From Callorhinchus milii (lineage: Eukaryota), in assembly GCF_018977255.1 (NCBI RefSeq), contig NW_024704742.1:82710001-82774000 (forward strand): 64,000 nt of DNA. The letters are read 5' to 3'. Every line of letters starts with the position of its first letter. Within the stretch, counting starts at the first letter, position 1. The position numbers and the translations under genes were made by a program. Under the pieces are notes generated by a model, which was not told the DNA's origin, searched no databases, and was given only the letters and a program-made list of their open reading frames with translations. Positions 6,262 through 64,000 of the stretch are shown here, piece after piece.

Positions 6262-6772
6262 ACAATAATAATAATCGTTGCATTTGATATTGCTCCTTAT
6301 CACGTCGTTCAATGCGATGTTTCAATGCGCTTCACAAAATATACTGTAAATTTAACTGACTGTATATTTTGTGGATGAAATGCGGCAGCCAATTGCATAC
6401 AGCAGTGTCCCACAAACAGTCATGGATCAAGTCACCAAATTATTTTTTTTTTAATTTAAAAGGATTATTACCCCCAGAAAAGCAATCTGCCAATCAACCA
6501 ACAACTGGGATCCTACTTACAGCTAGGTAAACTGAGGCTTGTGGAGTAAGATTGGCTGCCGCGTTCGCCCACAAATATACAGTCAATTCACTTTACAGTG
6601 TGTTCTGTGAAGCGCTTTGGGACGTCCTCCCGACGTGAAAAGCGCTATATCAAATGCAAGGATTATTATTATTATTATTATTATTATAAGAAAACTTGCC
6701 CAACATTTCACCCTGCTCGGGAATCAAACTCGCTTGTGAGGCGAGTGCTCTAACCACTAAGCTACAAGAATT
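6262..6772 (-). mobile_element. tRNA-headed SINE, long form, host of a younger SINE
   Basis: Complete tail-body-head order on the minus strand. Confidence 0.9.
6551..6686 (+). mobile_element. Young 5'-truncated SINE
   Basis: Essentially identical to the 3' part of 15461-15786, (TTA)n tail, TSD TAAG(A) at 6547-6551 and 6687-6691. Confidence 0.92.
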
Positions 6773-15348: not shown

Positions 15349-16910
15349 ATGTTTGAAGATGTATCTAACAGGTTAGATAGGGGGAACCAGTAGATGTAGT
15401 ATATTTAGATTTTACAAAGGCATTTGACAAAGTGCCACACAAAAGGCTATTGCACAAGGTGGAGTCCTGTAGCTCAGTGGTTAGAGCACTCGCTTTGCAA
15501 GCGAGAGACCTGAGTTCAATTCCAGGCAGAGGGCGAAACCTTGGGCAAGTTTCCTTACTCCACACAGAGCCTAATAATAATCCCTCCAAAAAACCAAAAC
15601 AATAATAGATTGGTAATTTTCAATCTACGACTGTTTGTGGGACATTGCTGTGCGCAATTGGCTGCCGCGTTCACCCACAAATATACAGTCAATTCACTTT
15701 ACAGTGTGTTCTGTGAAGCGCTTTGGGACGTCCTCCCGACGTGAAAAGCGCTATATCAAATGCAAGGATTATTATTATTATTATATAAGGTTAAGGCCCA
15801 CGGGATTAATGGGAACATATTAACATGGATTGAAGAGTGGCTAACGGGTAGAAAACAGAGAGTAGGGATACACGGGTCATTCTCGAGATGGTAGGATGTG
15901 ACTACTGGAGTGCCACAAGGATCAGTGCTTGGGCCTCAGCTATTTACAATTTACATCAATGATCTAGACGAGGACATTGAATGTAACGTATCTAAATTTG
16001 CGGATGACACTGAACTAGGTGGGAGAGTAAGCTCTGAGGATGATGCAAAAAGATTGCAACGGGATATAGATAGGTTAGGGGAGTGGGCGAGTAGGTGGCA
16101 GATGGAATTTAATGTGGGGAAGTGTGAAGTTATTCACCTAGGTAGCAAAAATAGAAAAACAGATTATTTTCTAGAAGGGGAGAGATTAGATAGTGTTAGT
16201 GTTCAGAGGGATTTGGGTGTCCTTGTACACCAGTCTCAAAAAGTTAGTTTGCAGGTGCAGCAAGCAACCAAGAAAGCGAACGGCATGTTAGCGTTCATTG
16301 CAAAAGGTTTAGAGTACAAGAGTAGGGAAGTATTGCTGCAACTGTATAGGGCCTTGGTGAGACCGCACCTAGAGTATTGTGTGCAGTTTTGGGGACATAC
16401 TTGCCCTAGAGGGGGTGCAGCGTAGATTCACTAGGTTAGTTCCTGGGATGAGGGGACTGACCTATGAGGGTAGGCTGAATAAACTAGGGCTATATTCTCT
16501 AGAGTACAGAAGAATTAGGGGAGATCTTATTGAAACATATAAGATTCTTAACGGGCTGGATAAAGTAGACACTGAGGGACTGTTTCCCCTGATAGGAGAA
16601 TCTATAACCAGGGGTCACAGTCTTAAAATTAAGGGTCAGCCTTTTGGAACAGAGTTGAGGAAGCATTTCTTCACTCAGAGGGTAGTGAATTTATGGAATT
16701 CACTACCACAGAAGGCTGTAGATGCTCAGTCCTTGAACATCTTCAAGGCTGAGACTGATAGATTTTTACAAAATAGAGGGATTAGGGGATATGGGGATAG
16801 GGCAGGTAATTAGAGTTAGATCTGAAGATCAGCCATGATCTTATCAAATGGCGGGGCAGGCTCGAGGGGCCGAATGGCCTACTCCTGCTCCTAAGTCTTA
16901 TGTTCTTATG
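15349..16910 (+). mobile_element. 5'-truncated CR1 LINE (RT domain to 3' end), inactivated
   Basis: [43 protein letters not shown]. In-frame TAG near 15892, frameshifting deletion near 16390, (TCTTATG)2-type tail, probable TSD ATGGAAG at 15342-15348 and 16908-16914. Confidence 0.95.
15461..15786 (+). mobile_element. Young tRNA(Ala)-headed SINE, short form, inserted in CR1
   Basis: A box TAGCTCAGTGG, anticodon arm CTCGC-TTTGCAA-GCGAG, B box GTTCAATTCC. TSD AAGGT at 15456-15460 and 15787-15791; the CR1 frame resumes on the far side. Confidence 0.95.
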
Positions 16911-17519: not shown

Positions 17520-17890
17520 ATTACCCCCAGAATGTAATCTGCCAATGACTAACAACCGGGTTCTTACTTACTGCTAGGTAAACAGAGGCATTAGAAGTAA
17601 GGAAACTTGTCTAAGGTCTTGCCCCACCCAGGAATTAAACCTGGGTTCTCTCGCTTGAGAGACAAATGCTCTAAACCACTATACTAACCACTCTTTGACC
17701 GTGCCTTCAGCTCCCCTCTCGACTCTCTTCCCCCTCCTCGCTCCCTCCCTTCCCTCCCCTCACCCTGACCATTTCCCCCCTGCTCGGGTCCTGACCCAAC
17801 TGTGCAGCGCCTTGGGACGTCCTCCTGACGTGAAAGGCGCTTTATAAATGGAATCTTGTTGTTGTTGTTGTTGTATACTATGGGACTTCA
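17520..17890 (-). mobile_element. SINE long form, 5' half, head split by an L2 3' end
   Basis: Central block and head on the minus strand; the head resumes after 17874. Confidence 0.8.
17691..17873 (+). mobile_element. Young L2 3' UTR fragment
   Basis: Near identical to 43924-44149, (TTG)n tail, TSD TATACTA at 17680-17686 and 17874-17880. Confidence 0.93.
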
Positions 17891-18966: not shown

Positions 18967-19381
18967 ATAACATAACATAACATAACATGTAGGAGCAGGA
19001 GTAGGCCATTCGGCCCTTCGAGCCTGCCCTGCCATTCAATCATGGCTGATCTTCTAATCTAATGCAGCTAATAACCTAACTCTGCCTTATCCCCATATCC
19101 CTTAATCCCTTTTGAAATAAGAAATCTATCTATCTCAGTCTTGAATATGTTCAAGGACTGAGCGTCAACAGCCCTTTGGGGTAGTGAGTTCCATACATTC
19201 ACCACCCTTTGAGTGAAGACGTTTTTCCTCAACTCAGTGCGAAAGGGCTGGTCTCTGATTTTAAGGTTGTGACCCCTGGTTTTAGTTTCTCCGACCAGGG
19301 GAAATAATCTCCCACTATCTACTCTATCATGTCCTTTGATGATCTTATAGGTTTCTACCTTTGATGATCTTATAGGTTTCT
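18967..19381 (-). mobile_element. Young CR1 3' fragment
   Basis: ETYKIIKG..TRGH.LK..FTQRVVNVWNSLP, (TTATG)n tail, near identical to 63488-63870. Confidence 0.95.
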
Positions 19382-35223: not shown

Positions 35224-35935
35224 AATAATGACCCTTGCATTTGACATAGCGTCTTAACATGTCTCTGAGGCATCTCAAAGCGCTTCACAGAATATACTGT
35301 AAAGTAAATAATAATCCTTGCATTTGATATAGCGCTTTTCACGTCGGGAGGACGTCCCAAAGCGCTTCACAGAACACACTGTAAAGTGAATTGACTGTAT
35401 ATTTGTGGGCGAACGCGGCAGCCAATTGCGCACAGCAATGTCCCACAAACAGTCGTAGATTGAAAATGACCAATTTATTATTGTTTTTGGTTTTGGAGGG
35501 ATTATTATTAGGCTCTGTGTGGAGTAAGGAAACTTGCCCAAGGTTTCGCCCTCTGCCTGGAAATAAACTCAGGTCTCTCACTTGCAAAGCGAGTGCTCTA
35601 ACCACTGAGCTACAGGACTCCTCAAATAAAGTGAATTGACTGTATTTGTGGGTGAAACGCTGCACCCAATTGTGCTCAGCAATGTCCCACAAGCAGCCGT
35701 GAATTGAATACCAATTTTTTTTTTAATTTTTAATTTTTTGAAGGAATTATTAACCCCAGAAAAGCGATCTGGCAATTACCAGTACTGGTAATCCAGTAGG
35801 TGATCTTCCTATTTCCTCTAGTTAAACAGAGGCATTGGAGTAAGGAAACTTGCCCAACGTTTGCCCTGCCAGGAATTGAACCCAAGTCTTCTCGCTTGCG
35901 AGGCGAGTGCTCTAACCGCAAAACTGCAGGACTCC
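35224..35935 (-). mobile_element. Long-form SINE containing a young short-form SINE (35306-35620)
   Basis: TSD TAAAGT at 35300-35305 and 35627-35632; the inner copy is near identical to 15461-15786. Confidence 0.92.
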
Positions 35936-38517: not shown

Positions 38518-39425
38518 ACAACAACAACAATTTGCACTTATATAGCGCCCTCCACGAAGATAGCATCTCAGAGCGCTTAAAAATGAAGGAACCTGACTCT
38601 GAGCCGGGGGGAGGTGAGAGGTGGCCGTAAGCAAGGTCGAAGAAGAAAGTTTTCAGGCGGGATTTAAAAGAGGGGAGAGAGGGGGCAAGGTGGAGGGATT
38701 GAGGAAGAGTGTTCCAGAGTTTTGGAGAGCAGTGGCTGAAAGCACGATGTCAGATGTCAGATGGTGCGGCAGAGGGTGCAAGGGACGAGCAGCAGTCTGG
38801 TACTAGTCGAGCAGAGGCGCTGGGTGATGGATTGGAGAGTGAGGAGGTCGGAGAGGTAGGGAGGTGCCAGGGGTGAATGGATTTGAACATGAGTGTGAGG
38901 ATCTTAAAGTCGATCCATTCAGTGGTGAGGAGCCAGTAGAGCCTGACCAGAACTGGTGAGATGTGGGTACGGAGTTTGGTCCGGGTCAGTATGCACGCGG
39001 CAGAGTTGAATGAGCTGGATCTTGTGAAAGGTGAAGCTGGGGAGACCGGCAAGAAGTGTGTTGGAGTAATCCAAATGGGAGGCGAAAAACGCATGCACGA
39101 GGGTTTTAGCTGCATTTGGGGTAAGGTACGGTCAGGTGCGGGCAATGTGGTGGAGGTGGAAGAAGGCGGGCCTAGTCAGGGACTGGATGTGGGGGAGGAA
39201 GGACAGTTGGGGTTCTAACCAGATGCCTAGATTGGTCACTGGTTTGGTGAGTCTGAGGGAGAGTCCAGGGAGATTGAAGAGTTAAATCTGCAAGATGAAG
39301 ACGTTGACGGGAGCCAAGGAGTATGGGTTTCATCTTGTCCATATTCAGCTGCAGGAAGTTTACACTAACTCAACCTTCGATATCTGTCAGACAAGCTGAC
39401 AGAACATCGGTGGATCTGGCGTTGG
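38518..39425 (-). mobile_element. L2 LINE, second subfamily, 3' part
   Basis: NSAA.ILTRTK..HISPVL.RL.WL..IDFKIL; distinct 3' UTR and terminus shared with 48372-48787 and 57215-57417. Confidence 0.9.
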
Positions 39426-39436
39426 TACTGGAAAAA

Positions 39437-42290
39437 CAGCAACAACAACAAGATTACATTTGTATAGCGCCTTTCACGTCGGGAGGATGTCCCAAGGCAT
39501 TGGACAGTGTACAGCATTTCAGACCTGAGCTGGGATCAGGGAGGGAGAAGGGAGGGGAAGGGAAGGGGAGTGTCTGATGGCATGGTCGAAGAGGAAGGAT
39601 TTTAGGCGGGACTTGAAGGAGGCTAAGGAGGGGGCGAGGAGGAGTGATTGGGGGATGGAATTCCAGTGGTTGGGGGCAGAGTGGCTGAAGGCTCTCCCAC
39701 CAATAGTGGGGCGGGTGGGTCAGTGACGTGGAGCAGGCCGGAACCGGCTGAGCAGAGGGAGCGGTCAGGTTGGTAGGGGGTTAGGAGGTTGCAGAGGTAG
39801 GGTGGGGCGAGGCCATGGAGGGCTTTGTACTGGAGGAGGCAAAGTAGGCTTATGTGTCATCCACATACATGTGGAAGTTTACCCAGTGTCTGCGGATGAC
39901 ATTGCCCAGAGGGAGCATATAGATAAGAAAAAGAGAGGGCCAAGGATGGAACCTTGGAATACCCCACAGGTAACCAGTCGGGGATGGAAAGAGAAACCAT
40001 TTGCTGAGATGAAATGGAGGCAGTTGGTTAAGTGGGACTCGAACCATGCAAGTGTGGTCCCACTAAGGTAGATAAAGGAGGAGAGCCGATGGAGGAGGAT
40101 GGTGTTGTCGACTGTATCGAATGCGGCAGAGAGATCCAGGTGGACGAGGAGGCAGAGGGAGCCCTGGTCACAGATAGAGAGAATGTCATTTGTGACTTTG
40201 ACAAGTGCTGTCTCTGTGCTGTGGGCAGCGTGAAAAACAGACTCCTGGTACTTGAGGAGGGAGTGGAGGGAGAGGTGTGACTGAAGTTGATCTACAACAG
40301 TGCATTCCAGGACTTTGGCAAGGAAGAGTAGGTTGGAGATGGGATTGTAGTGTGAGAGATTAGAGGGATCGAGGATGGGGTTTTTGAGGAGGGGTTTGAT
40401 GACGTGGTTTTCAGAGGGAGTGGAACAGAGGCTGAGGAAAGAGATTGGTTGACCTTGTCGGCCAGCAGTGAGTAGAGAAGGAGGAGTTGAGTGACGAGTA
40501 GCTGGGTGGGGAAGGAGTCGAGGCAGCAGGTGGTGAACTTCATCCACGTGCTTGTGGTTGAGAGGGAGGGAGAAATGGGGGCAAAGGAGTGTAAGGAGAG
40601 GGAAGTGGCAGGATCCATGGCTGAGGGAAAAGGCAGTGTAGATGGTCTGGGTGGGGTGGAAGTGGATATGGTGGGAGGGAGGACGATGCAGCCAAGTGGA
40701 TGTTTTCAATTTTTGAGGCAAAGAAGTCTAGGACCTCTTCACAATTGGCGTTTGACGTGAGAATTGAGGGGGCTTGTGGGGGTGCATGGAGGCGGTGATG
40801 AACAGTGGAAAACAGTGTCTTTGAATTGTTGTTTGCCTCCAGGATGACTTTGGAGTAAAAGTCAGTTCTTGCCTGTGAAATGGAAAGGTAATAAATGCAG
40901 AGGTGCTCGAGCCACAGCTGGCGGTGAATCATGAGGTCAGATTTCTGCCATCTGCACTCGAGCATCCGGGTTTGTGTTTTGAGTGAGCGGAGATGACTGT
41001 TGTACCAGGGGGAGCGGGTGGGTTTGGAAACAACACTGGATTTCAGGGGAGCCAGGAAATTGAAGGTTGTGGAGAGACGTTGATTCAGCAGCTTGACGGC
41101 TGCATCAGGATCGCTGGAGGTGGACAGCCAGAGGGAGGGGTGGTCCGAGAAGAGAAGGAATTTGTGAGGGACTAAGGGGCAAGCTTTTCGCAGAGGTGGA
41201 AAAATATGGTGGAGGGTTTAGAAGAAGGGAGGAAGATGTGGGAAGAGTGGGAGATGCGGAAATGGTCCAAGATGGCCTTGTCCATGATAGACATGTCGGA
41301 AATGTCAAAGCCATGTGTGATGACTATGTCGAGAGAGTGGCCACAGTTGTGGGTCAGTGGGTTGATGTGGAGGGTGAGGTTTAGGGAGGAGAAGAGAGGG
41401 CAGTGAAATCCAAGGAGGTGGTGCAAGGGGAGTTTAGGTGGAGGTTGAAATCACCCATTATGAGCAGATCTTCAGTGCAGAGTGACAGGGATGACAGGAG
41501 AGAGGAGATATCGGTGAGGAAGGAGCCAGGAGGTTTGGGGGCCGAGTGGTAAACTAGCAGGATTTTGGGGGAGAGAGAGGAGGGATGGTAGAGGGTGAAA
41601 TGCTCAAAGGAGGAGAAACAGCCAGAGGAATAGGGGGATAGACCAAGGGAAGCTTAGGAGATGAGGGCCACCCAACTGCCATGTTGGTTGGGGTGGGTGG
41701 TGTGGTGAAAAGTGCAGCCAGGAGGGGAAGCTTCAACGAGGGGAACAGGGTCACCAGGGAAGGGCCAGGTTTCTGTAAGCCCACGAATATCAATGTGCAC
41801 ATCCAGGATGAGGTCATGGATAGTAAAGGCTTTGTTGGAGAGGGAGCGGACATTTTGGATAGGTTTGCTGGTGGTGGGGTGCTGGAGGAGAGTGATATAA
41901 GAGGATTTGAGGTCGTAGTGGAGAAACGACCATGGAATTTAAAGCTCAGGGAGAGTTGGAGATAGTACAGATGTGGAAGGAGGAAGGTGTGTTTGCCTTT
42001 CAGAGCCGATCGCTGCGGAGAGAATGAGCGATGGGACAGTTGGGGCGGCTGCTCTGGGACAAACAATGCCGGGAGCCACGATGGGCCTGGGGGAGGATGC
42101 CCAGACTGGAGCAGAGGGAGGTATTGGTGGGGTCCAAGAGAGAGAGAAGGCGAGGAGCGCGGTGGGAGAGAAGGACAGAGTGGGGGTAGCAGAATGTGAG
42201 GATGGGAGCAGGAACATTTTCAGGGGGAGCGGCTTGGGTCGGGGCGGCAGCCAAAACATGCACACAAAGACTGGGAGTGAATGATCAGCG
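39437..42290 (-). mobile_element. Long decayed L2 LINE with APE endonuclease and RT, internal deletion near 39830
   Basis: QNVRSLSNK..GLTETW (about 41770-41860), GDFNLH, TH..GHSLD, LDLSAAFDTVD, QGSILGP, YVDD in place of YADD, frameshifts, terminal hairpin. Confidence 0.93.
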
Positions 42291-42314: not shown

Positions 42315-42593
42315 AGGAAGTTTCCTTACTCCACAAGCCTCTGTTTGCCTAGCCGTAAATAGGAATCCAGTTGTTAGTCAATCGGCGGATCTCTTTCCGG
42401 GGCTAATAGTCACTCAAAAAACTTCAATCAATCCATGACTATTTGTGGGACACTGCTGTGCACAATTGGCTGCTGCGTTTCGCCCAGAAAATACACAATC
42501 GATCCACTTGATAATATATTCTGGAAAGCACTTTGAGACTGCTCAATGATGTAATAAAGTGCAATATCGAGTGCAAGGATTATTATTATTATT
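42315..42593 (+). mobile_element. Old long-form SINE, head missing; donor of the segments copied at 43527-43664
   Basis: Central block and tail carrying private mutations. Confidence 0.88.
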
Positions 42594-42627
42594 GCAGTTT
42601 GATTTATTTTCAAGTACTGCATCCAAC

Positions 42628-42846: not shown

Positions 42847-43414
42847 CTAACCCGCTGGCAGTCCATTCAGTGGCTTAGGGCAACACAAAAGTGGAGGGAG
42901 GAAAGAGGGGAATCACACGAGACAGTCAATTAAAACTTGGTTTAACTGACGACACTATTCAGTGATGTGTTGATTAACACACCATAGGTTGCAATTTTCA
43001 CCCCAATATCAGAACAGTTATGCTGTTAATTCTCGGGACTTGGTATGGCATATGAGCTCATTCTTCCTTTGTGATTTGCCTGTATTTGTTCATTGGTTTT
43101 CTTTTCTCTATTTAGGGTTTTTAATTTTGTTGATGTCATTTTCAAATGAATTTTTCCAGAAAATGCAGTATTATTTTGTGAAGCTTGCTCAAAGAGAACT
43201 TTGATAAACAAATGTTTTTATGTTGTTTCATTAATGGAGAAAAAACATTGAAAATCTACATTTTCGGTATATGACATAGTTCTAAATTCATAAAATGGAG
43301 GTTATAATAATAATCCTTGCAATTGATATAGCACCTCTCAAAATGCTTCACAGGATTTACTGTAATGTGCAGTAAACTGTATATTTTGTATGCGAACAAT
43401 AATGCAAGTTATTA

Positions 43415-44405
43415 TAACAATAATAATCGTTGCATTTAATATAGCACCTCATCACATTTTCGAGATGTTTCAAAGAATTTCACAGAATATACTGTAAAGT
43501 GAATTAACTGTATATTTTGTGGGTGAACAATTGGCTGCTGCGTTTCGCCCAGAAAATACACAATCGAACCACTTGATAATATATTCTGGAAAGCAAAAAA
43601 TTGAAGTTTTTTGAGTGACTATTAGCCCCGGAAAGAGATCCGCCGATTGACTAACAACTGGATTGATTTCAAGATCCTCATCCTCACCTACAAGGCCATT
43701 CACGGCCTTGCTCCCTCCTACCTCTCCAACCTACTATCCCCCTACCTACCTGCCCGTACCCTCCGTTCCTCTGGCTCTGGTCTGCTCCACGTCCCCCGCC
43801 CCAACCGCCCTACCATCGGTGGTCGGGCCTTCAGCCTCTCAGCCCCCAGGCTCTGGAACTCCATCCCCCAGTGCCTTCGCCGCCTCCTCCCTTTCCTCCT
43901 TCAAGACCGGTCTCAAAACCTTTCTCTTTGACCGTGCCTTCAGCTCCCCTCTCGACTCTCTTCCCCCTCCTCGCTCCCTCCCTTCCCTCCCCTCACCCTG
44001 ACCATTTCCCCCCTCCTCGCTCCCTCCCTTCCCTCACCCTGACCATTTCCCCCCTGCTCGGGTCATGACCCAACTGTGCAGCGCCTTGGGACGTCCTCCT
44101 GACGTGAAAGGCGCTTTATAAATGGAATCTTGTTGTTGTTGTTGTTGTTGTGAAATGTGGCAGCCAATTGTGTACAGCAGTGGCCTACAAACAGGCGTGG
44201 ATCAAGTAACCAATTTTTATTTTAATTTGAAGGGATTATTATACCCAGTAAAGCAATCTGTCAATCGACCAACAACCGGATTCCTACTGACTGCTAGTTA
44301 AACTGAGGTGCGTGGAGTAAGGAAACTTGCCCAACGTTTCTCCCTGGCCGGGATTCAAACTCACTTGCAAGGAGAGTGCTCTAGCCACTAAGCTAAAGGA
44401 ATCTA
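43415..44405 (-). mobile_element. Long-form SINE split by the composite insertion 43528-44149
   Basis: The SINE stops at GTGAA 43523-43527 and resumes at GTGAA 44150-44154. Confidence 0.9.
43665..44149 (+). mobile_element. Young L2 3' fragment
   Basis: FKILILTYKAIHGLAPSYLS..APRLWNSIP, near identical to the L2 at 8961-9410, (TTG)n tail. Confidence 0.95.
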
Positions 44406-44552: not shown

Positions 44553-44698
44553 TCACACATCTCTCAAACAGGGAGCTACAGACAATAATAATAATAATCC
44601 TTGCATTTGATATAGCAGTTTATCACATCTTGAAGAAGTCTCAAAGCACTTCACAGAATATACTGTAAAGTGAATTGACTGTATATTTTGTGAGCAAG
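44553..44698 (-). repeat. SINE 3' part plus 31 bp of flank, inverted copy of 46220-46361
   Basis: Flank matches 46331-46361 at 29 of 31 positions. Confidence 0.85.
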
Positions 44699-45957: not shown

Positions 45958-46330
45958 GGAGTCCTGAAGCTTAGTAGTTAGTGCAATTTCCTCGCAAGCG
46001 AGAGGATCTGGGTTTGATTCCTAGCAAGCAAAATGTTGGGCATGTTTCCACACTCCACATGCCTCTGTTTATCTAAGAGTAATTAGGAACCTGGTTATTA
46101 GTCGATTGGCGGATTGCTTTTCCAAGGGTAATAACCCCTTCAAAAAAAAATATAATAATTTGGTGATTCAATCCACGACTGTTTGTGGGACACTGTTGTG
46201 CACAGTTGACTGTCATGTTTTGCCCACAAAATACACAGTCAATTCACTTTACAGTATATTCTGTGAAGTGCTTTGAGACTTCCTCAAGTCGTGATAAGCT
46301 GCTATATCAAAAGCAAAGATTATTATTATT
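45958..46330 (+). mobile_element. tRNA-headed SINE, long form, full length
   Basis: GGAGTCCTG head, central block, tail. Confidence 0.9.
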
Positions 46331-46649
46331 GTCTGTAGCTCCCTGTTTTAAAGATGTGTGAACCCAACAGCCCATTCAACCCAAGTAATGTGGTTTCTGA
46401 AAGCCACAATGTACTTAATCAGTCAGCCAGAGCTCTGTTGCTCTAAGAAATATTGAAGTTATTCAATGCATTGTAAAGATCAGGTCAACTGTGTAGAACA
46501 AATCTGCCGCTAAATGACCAGTTTCAAATCATTGGTGCACATTCCCTCAGTGGCTTCCAAGACTCACATAACTTGTGTATCTTGCCAACATTTGGTTTGT
46601 GGAGTCTGTGATTCAGTGGGTGAGATATCTCTGGCCACTGGGTAACTGG

Positions 46650-62340: not shown

Positions 62341-62801
62341 GGACCGGATTGTCGAGTGTTCTTAGTTTGCTGAAGACATCAAGTAGAATTAATGAGGATA
62401 ATAATTACTTGTTTGAAACACTATAAATACAATCTTCAATGCCTCGATTTGAATGTTAGTAAACAAACACCATTGTCAGCTTGTAGCAAATAAACATCCA
62501 ACTGATACACAGAGAATAGATTTTTACAGTGAGAAAGGGAGAGCAAGGAAATTATCAATAAGAATAATGTAACAGTTGATAAGATCACCAGAGATTTGGA
62601 TGAAGAAGGCTTTTCTGCAGTTGGTTCGAACTCACTGGGGGAACACAATTTTGTTAGAGATGCCATCCTTTGGATGAGACATTAAAATGAGACTGTCTGC
62701 CTCTTGAGGTGGATGTTAAAAGATCCCAAGGTACTATTCAAGAAGAGTTTTTCCAATGTCTTGGCCAATGATCCCTCAGATGCAGATTGTGGGACATTGC
62801 T

Positions 62802-63121
62802 GGAGTTCTGTAGCTCAGTGGTTAGAGCACTCGCTTTGCAAGCGAGAGACCTGAGTTCAATTCCAGGCAGGGCGAAACCTTGGGCAAGTTTCCTTACTCC
62901 ACACGCCTAATAATAATCCCTCCAAAAAATGAAAACAATAATAAATTGGTCATTTTCAATCAACGACTGTTTGTGGGACATTGCTGTGCGCAATTGGCTG
63001 CCGCGTTCGCCCACAAATATACAGTCAATTCACTTTACAGTATATTCTGTGAAGCGCTTTGGGACGTCCTCCCGACGTGAAAAGCGCTATATCAAATGCA
63101 AGGATTATTATTATTATTATT
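62802..63121 (+). mobile_element. Young short-form tRNA SINE inserted in an old Deu-SINE (62655-63255)
   Basis: TSD ATTGCT at 62796-62801 and 63122-63127. Confidence 0.95.
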
Positions 63122-63487
63122 ATTGCTATGTGGAAATTGGTTGCCACATTCACGTAAAAATAAATTTGCTACAATTTACGGAAACGTTGTGTAGCACTTT
63201 GAGATGTTCTCGAAGTTCTAGCTGCTATACAAAATGCGAGGATTATTTATTATTGATTTATCCAGTGTGGATAAATTCGACGTCATGCAAAATACTAATT
63301 GATTGCAGTGTTAACTACAGTTTTGTTCCCATCAGGAGTTATACTGTCATGATAGTACCACACTGTATCAATCCTTAGCAATCAATGGAATTAAACCTGT
63401 TACCAGGGCCTTTGGAAACATTCTTGTTTACCATTCAGCTCCTTTACTCAGATAACCACTTGCACTCTTGAAGCATATTTTCTTTCT

Positions 63488-64000
63488 ACATAACATAACA
63501 TGTAGGAGGAGGAGTAGGCCATTTGGCCCTTCGAGCCTGCCCCGCCATTCAATCATGGCTGATCTTCTAATCTAATGCAGCTAATAACCTAACCCTGCCT
63601 TATCCCCATATCCCTTAATCCCTTTTGCAATAAGAAATCTATCTATCTCAGTCTTGAATATGTTCAAGGACTGAGCGTCAACAGCCCTTTGGGGTAGTGA
63701 GTTCCATACATTCACTACCCTTTGAGTGAAGAAGTTCTTCCTCAACTCAGTGCGAAAGGGCTGGCCTCTGATTTTAAGGTTGTGACCCCTGGTTTTAGTT
63801 TCTCCAACCAGGGGAAACAATCTCCCACTATCTACTCTATCATGCCCTTTGATGATCTTATAGGTTTCTATAAGATCCCCTCTAATTCTTCTATATTCTA
63901 GAGAATATAGGCCCAAATTGGTCAGCCTATCCTCGTAACTCATCCCCTTCATCCCTGGCACTAACCTAGTAAATCTACGCTGCACCCCCTCCAAGGCAAG
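63488..64000 (-). mobile_element. Young CR1 3' end, continues beyond the window
   Basis: Open frame EGVQRRFTRLVPG..GLYSLE.RR.RGDLIETYKI..WNSLP, (TTATG)n tail. Confidence 0.95.

Follow-up and report, generated by a model that had tools for sequence, protein, structure and literature searches.

The 64-kb stretch of DNA analysed here (the window) contains a LINE insertion with a composite 5' junction. The target-site duplication (TSD) GTGAA lies at 43523–43527 and 44150–44154 and encloses the whole unit (features are on the plus strand unless the minus strand is given). The order between the TSD copies is a direct copy of 42462–42530 at 43527–43595 (68/69 identical), an AAAA linker at 43596–43599, an inverted, minus-strand copy of 42364–42428 at 43600–43664 (65/65 identical), and a 5'-truncated young L2-type LINE of 490 nt at 43660–44149, which comprises the end of an ORF, a 41-bp duplication, a 3' stem-loop and a (TTG)n tail at 44130–44149. 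The structure described in the first-pass annotation was reproduced in every part, and the GGAT microhomology that it had placed at the LINE join is present, even as GGATT (5 nt) in the present sequence, the last 4–5 nt of the inverted piece (GGAT/T) being common to the LINE. GGAT is invariant in all six of the other L2-type copies shown.

The unit interrupts a minus-strand SINE, of which the SINE-family alignment places the 3' half in the left flank (43414–43527) and the 5' half, with the head, in the right flank (44155–44398). When 43528–44154 was removed in silico, the SINE was collinear with its family and gap-free at the site, so that the 5-bp duplication is genuine; the GT with which it begins is also compatible with the (GTT)n tail. 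The locus is a genuine insertion of a young LINE whose 5' junction was templated nearby, an event of a kind already known, and it is now a dead single-copy scar of 627 bp without sign of function.

The LINE part has close relatives in the window. It agrees at 421 of 447 positions with a copy at 9 kb, to which its ORF end is 94.5% identical, with a 2-nt gap near 43881 against the same copy, which in turn matches the RT-bearing element at 39.4–42.3 kb, and its 3' part agrees with the copy at 17691–17874 at 183 of 184 positions, the 41-bp internal duplication excepted. This tandem duplication (43990–44030, in the 3' region) is absent from both the 9-kb and the 17.7-kb copies. Pfam searches of the LINE relatives returned RVT_1 only. 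The 3' stem-loop (z = −3.1) recurs in the young tRNA-headed SINE; the L2 label rests on motifs, namely a 3' stem-loop and short-repeat tail common to the LINE and a tRNA-derived SINE, which we take to be the mark of L2. The TSD round the whole unit, the 5' truncation, the 3' tail and the homology to an RT-encoding element are those of a TPRT insertion, and the TPRT chemistry itself would follow by analogy with known LINE biology.

Other repeats were observed in the same window. A long and decayed LINE (39432–42260, minus strand), in which endonuclease-like and RT segments occur, lies directly to the left of the SINE described below as the donor, with a second LINE 3' part next to it (~38520–39400). 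This adjacent LINE (39.4–42.3 kb), tried as a source through 5' transduction, was ruled out, being only 75% identical. The sister young LINE fragment at 17680–17881 has TATACTA in duplicate (7 bp) and, at its 5' end, 4 extra nt repeating AACCACT from the flank; its junction is of the ordinary short templated form and counts in favour of the path proposed below. A very young tRNA-headed SINE subfamily (6551–6687, 15460–15784, 35307–35621 and 62801–63124; 95–100% identical) is without the internal segment of the older copies and has the hairpin in common with the LINE 3' end, and its copies at 6551 and 35307 lie inside or beside older SINE sequence. Two 383-bp pieces (18975–19357 and 63488–63870) are 97% identical, have the same ACATA-repeat start, and probably represent the minus-strand 3' terminus of a further young repeat family.

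Both copied pieces trace to an old, 5'-truncated copy of the tRNA-headed SINE family at 42318–42594 (the donor SINE). The template of the inverted piece (42364–42428) begins with AATCC, matching the 3' end of the cDNA, and is separated by 33 uncopied nt (42429–42461), like the gap at a twin-priming inversion point, from a priming match with the template of the direct piece (42458–42530), which consists of GTGCA, identical to GTGAA at 4 of 5 positions, followed by 42462–42530. The points of entry into the template hence carry GGAT(T) microhomology of 4–5 nt at one and the 4/5 match of GTGAA to GTGCA at the other.

The pieces were compared with 20 rows, comprising 19 other SINE copies of the window (blast, at least 140 aligned nt) and the emptied target. 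At best, these rows matched the direct piece at 55/68 and the inverted piece at 48/64, and the insert has the donor-private base at 20 of 20 positions (10/10 in each piece), some columns resting on 10–13 rows only, as about half of the rows are without much of the inverted piece's region. The sole mismatch is A at 43568 against T at 42503; nearly all family copies have T, so the change is derived in the insert, and the upstream copy is therefore the donor. The first-pass claim that the pieces carry the private mutations of this particular SINE is borne out, and the circumstance named as speaking against it, an equally good match to many SINE copies, is not found in the window. These counts rule out a family-level origin of the pieces, and within the 64 kb the nearby locus beats every other source for the extra DNA.

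The public data contain four runs of one study with 64–71% of the stretch's sampled words, no RNA run being among those listed, and contigs were examined from three runs of that study (X1, X2 and X3) and from a run of another organism (X20). Record 5 of X1 matches 43533–43664 with 0 differences, with 63 nt before AAAA and 65 nt after it, and includes the derived base at 43568. The depth of this contig, 14.3, compares with 12.9 for neighbouring unique DNA of the same run, so the junction contig stands at about single-copy depth. A contig of X3 terminates exactly at 42428, the point at which donor and insert fork; at the LINE side it continues unbroken from the shared 65 nt into the flank of the donor, which is a point against the structure. 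The middle junction, for which spanning sequence had been called for in the first-pass annotation, is accordingly spanned by a contig of X1, while the outer two (flank to direct piece and inverted piece to LINE) have no bridging piece among the 32 contig pieces listed of ~297,000; among the pieces listed, X2 has none on the junctions and X20 no long unique piece. Assemblers prune short links into very deep repeat nodes, and the missing outer bridges are probably a result of this usual behaviour. An empty-site joint was not seen among the 15 rows listed (2,719 more exist), the read tables being dominated by repeat copies.

At 43035 and 42985 the window departs from the three public samples, as a result of either polymorphism or assembly error; at 43035 the sole covering contig reads A in each of X1–X3. 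Since all three differ there, X1–X3 are not copies of the assembled haplotype, unless the assembly is in error at that position.

These data bear on whether the structure is an assembly artefact, in which a repeat-driven misjoin would have connected the donor SINE to an L2 copy. In favour of a misjoin are the two of three junctions that are unbridged among the pieces listed, and the remaining 40 letters of X1 record 5, which are unplaced and do not continue into the LINE, although their number fits the donor flank 42324–42363. Against it stand the same record, which holds the direct piece, AAAA, the inverted piece and the derived base without a difference, the stop of the X3 contig exactly at the fork, and the difference at 43035, which makes X1–X3 independent unless it is an assembly error; moreover, a misjoin would not predict a clean TSD in a collinear SINE. 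We consider an artefact highly unlikely. Still less likely, and in our view extremely so, is that a chimeric RNA of a distant locus, or a small composite family, was already equipped with these SINE pieces and was retrocopied: this reading gains from the limitation of the copy comparison to the 64-kb window, and has against it the agreement of all private bases with a locus 1.1 kb away, the near-equal depth of the junction contig and the low identity of the adjacent long LINE, which is thus not the source.

The copied pieces have 1 difference in 134 nt (95% range, 0.02–4.2%). The pieces (133/134) and the LINE (183/184 to its sister copy) are similar in age, as is expected for one event. An alternative would be two events, in which an ordinary truncated L2 insertion was followed by a later break at the 5' junction, whose repair added the pieces. 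An inverted copy at 44553–44697, 400 nt away, lends this some colour, because it suggests that local copying may occur here without a LINE body. That copy is older (91%), derives from 46220–46361, 1.5 kb downstream, and consists of a SINE 3' end with ~30 nt of unique flank; it has (A)GAGTT on either side and a 7-nt filler resembling the left flank, and may be a second locally templated insertion, from a plus-strand template, or a read-through SINE retrocopy. The intact TSD adjoining the direct piece, the similar ages and the microhomology at the LINE truncation point all speak against two events, which we regard as very unlikely. With high confidence, the locus records a single insertion event that used a local template.

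The target is itself a minus-strand copy of the donor's SINE family, 76% identical to the donor (209/275), and no other inverted relative lies as near to it (donor at −1049; the next at +2065). On the donor, the cut site maps to 42479–42483, 17–21 nt within the template from which the direct piece was copied. The inverted piece derives from the part of the donor that is homologous to the right flank of the target. When the minus strand of the emptied locus was folded, 201 in-register SINE–SINE pairs were obtained as RNA and 180 as DNA. The local SINE template had been recognised in the first-pass annotation, which overlooked that the target is an in-register inverted copy of the same family. 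Among 92 sites that match GTGAA equally well at distances between 100 nt and 1.3 kb, one on the plus reading lies within 25 nt of the homologous position of an inverted copy, and seven do so near the homologous position if any copy or strand is counted. This coincidence of register (~1–8%) was evaluated post hoc and is suggestive.

A direct repeat of an old SINE tail (43375–43400), 131 nt upstream, offers another route to the donor. It matches the primer end at 19 of 22 positions and continues with CAAT, and the primer end after this CAAT step, GTGAACAAT, finds an 8/9 match within 2.5 kb only at the upstream repeat and at 42458. The repeat is a possible stepping stone to the donor and competes with pairing of the SINEs as an explanation of why this donor was used; this reading is weakened by the position of CAAT in an AAT-rich tail. 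The AAAA linker is either untemplated or a snap-back or slip copy of CAAAAAA at 42415–42421, which it matches together with its neighbours; 10 of the 256 possible linkers match equally well, and untemplated addition of A is as simple an origin. Both the linker and the CAAT repeat fit end-joining synthesis, resembling synthesis-dependent microhomology end joining and polymerase-theta templated insertions in primer realignment and in snap-back or loop-out filler that makes a match. The tracts of such repair are usually shorter and closer to the break than those found here.

We propose the following path. The endonuclease would have cut the old minus-strand SINE so that the ends were staggered by 5 nt; the cDNA would have been primed on the (UUG)n tail and extended for 490 nt. 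The 3' end of the cDNA (...AATCC) would then have left the LINE RNA and copied a further 60 nt from the minus strand of the donor, giving the inverted piece, while the top-strand end (...GTGAA-3') would have primed at GTGCA on the same minus strand, ~95 nt further along, and copied 68 nt, giving the direct piece. Joining of the two new 3' ends via AAAA would leave two opposed pieces and a 33-nt gap, in the geometry of twin priming. The donor would have been brought to the break by pairing of the two 76%-identical inverted SINEs, a step that the short match at the repeat 131 nt upstream may have assisted or replaced; recruitment in one of these ways is probable.

The TSD, the tail, the truncation, the microhomology and the geometry are present in the sequence, and the order of the steps and the second priming are those that we would assign to them. 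The templates are tandem on one strand, with the distal piece inverted and joined to the TSD, as in the layout of twin priming; of 828 pairs drawn at random from priming sites that match as well within 1.3 kb, 23 were on the same strand, in tandem and at most 150 nt apart. Every path uses the minus strand at least once, and the two-primer path uses the minus strand only, so that no strand change would be needed. The TSD, at 5 bp, is shorter than the 10–20 bp of twin priming, and the event shows twin-priming geometry but is not canonical twin priming.

The final sequence does not separate this path from those with one primer. In these, both pieces come from one and the same end, which changed strand on DNA: either the end of the cDNA copied first the minus and then the plus strand, as the first-pass annotation proposed, or the top-strand end invaded the inverted SINE, took the direct piece from the displaced minus strand, crossed to the plus strand for the inverted piece and finally paired with the cDNA at GGATT. 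Both give the identical product. The top-strand version would also explain the register, most of the direct piece falling within the displaced region 42479–42592, and a single end makes second priming on RNA unnecessary, consistent with the available text of PMC4245944; local genomic templating is moreover reported for L1 in the accessible parts of PMC11702581 and 10.1101/2024.08.27.596794. Against these paths, both strands are required, and the cDNA-only version involves a forward jump of 102 nt to the other strand with a match of 0–2 nt and offers no reason why the pieces do not overlap. On balance we lean towards two primers on one strand as the most likely path, followed by one primer with a strand change as a possible, clearly less probable one. 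The local templating of one L2 insertion put forward in the first-pass annotation stands, while its double switch of the cDNA with a strand change is one of three paths equivalent in sequence and not the simplest of them.

Concerning the nature of the template, plus-strand RNA alone, including the SINE's own transcript, is excluded by the geometry, which needs the minus strand at least once. We slightly favour exposed DNA as the minus-strand template; a nascent minus-strand transcript is a serious candidate that we place just below even. A-to-G editing was found at 0 of 37 template adenines, weakly against an edited double-stranded RNA template, and the SINE orientations in the window (17 plus and 25 minus, p = 0.28) are uninformative on the strand. 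A simple splice-site scan for a host gene and its strand, a weak test, gave 8 rows at 5 starts, none convincing. A Pfam search of 273 of the 285 non-repeat open frames, leaving out the 12 inside the 40.6–42.3-kb LINE, gave nothing, and is likewise weak since a control with the LINE C-terminus was also blank; Rfam returned tRNA-like SINE heads only. Splicing as the origin of the join between the inverted piece and the LINE was rejected, as there is no GT after it on the donor minus strand.

A more speculative reading, which we think doubtful, is that a nascent minus-strand transcript with the inverted SINE formed an R-loop on the cut target and that the L2 enzyme reverse-transcribed it from both ends. 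The 5-nt top-strand end would here be displaced by the hybrid between the 76%-identical repeats. The reading rests on one event. If it were true, L2 elements would perform twin priming on host RNA even with their short stagger, and in repeat-dense genomes the choice of the local sequence duplicated during retrotransposition would be guided by pairs of inverted SINEs.

Related junctions are known from other LINEs. In the zebrafish, according to the available portions of the reports, about half of the 5' junctions of ZfL2-2 have extra nucleotides, many of them copied from the flank (PMC4245944, PMC4760211, PMC2666801), and ZfL2-1 has 5-bp TSDs and gave no 5' inversions, the authors' suggestion being that an overhang of 5 nt does not suffice for second priming (PMC4245944). 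With the same 5-bp TSD and no 5' inversions, the ZfL2-1 result, as given in the text available, counts against the two-primer path (PMC4245944). As far as those texts go, the present locus is like ZfL2-1 and ZfL2-2 in being L2-type, with a 5-bp TSD and a truncated 5' end joined via flank-copied extra DNA, but the zebrafish extras are several nt in length and copied from the junction flanks, whereas here they amount to 138 nt in two opposed pieces from 1.0–1.2 kb away. The first-pass annotation named no earlier description for chondrichthyan L2, and we found no report on chondrichthyan LINE junctions in a search with thin coverage of subscription journals; the novelty is nevertheless smaller than it suggested, the flank-templated zebrafish L2 junctions having been published, as their accessible text states.

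In human L1, the accessible text of 10.1101/2024.08.27.596794 gives 22 templated insertions among 3,598, shorter than 250 bp and typically at most 15 bp from the site, and that of PMC11702581, including the legends to Fig. S9-S10, three insertions with locally templated DNA, one of them of four pieces. On these partial texts, the likeness lies in short local copies at the 5' junction of TPRT products, sometimes multi-piece or inverted; the L1 cases come from tumour or cultured cells, whereas the present one is a germ-line L2-type copy, and its template is 1.1 kb away, yet lies in an inverted repeat, where 17–21 nt separate it from the homologous position. L1 twin priming, as far as described in the sections available (PMC11702581, PMC4245944), likewise places an inverted piece by the TSD and a non-inverted one by the 3' part, with a small gap and microhomology, but it uses the LINE RNA as template, which is not so here, and its TSDs of 10–20 bp and gaps of mostly 1–10 nt compare with 5 bp and 33 nt. 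Somatic L1 insertions, in the accessible part of PMC10191854, include foldback synthesis of 52–220 bp and one co-insertion of a local pre-mRNA; they resemble the present locus in local sequence at the 5' junction and in similar lengths, and differ in that the transcript is known there, while our weak tests found no host gene here. Templated insertions at homeologous sites are reported, in the text available, for a C. elegans repair mutant (PMC8078821). The available portions of PMC5389967, PMC13526784, PMC13174262 and PMC8078821 contain no L2 or CR1 junction like the present one, and no fitting case of twin priming outside L1 was found in the literature, in which subscription journals were thinly covered.

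Taken alone, the locus carries little weight: it is a dead insertion of 627 bp in repeat-rich DNA, and our weak tests found no gene close by. What it offers is a finely resolved view of the sealing of the second end of a LINE insertion, a step not yet settled in general; the private SINE mutations fix the template to the base. Its wider interest is limited to the repeat-guided, one-strand reading: should the geometry not recur, this would be an ordinary templated junction. If, however, both the inverted donor in register and the one-strand geometry turn up again across the genome, the strand bias would permit a test of DNA versus RNA as the template, and homeologous repeats would be seen to guide the choice of template.
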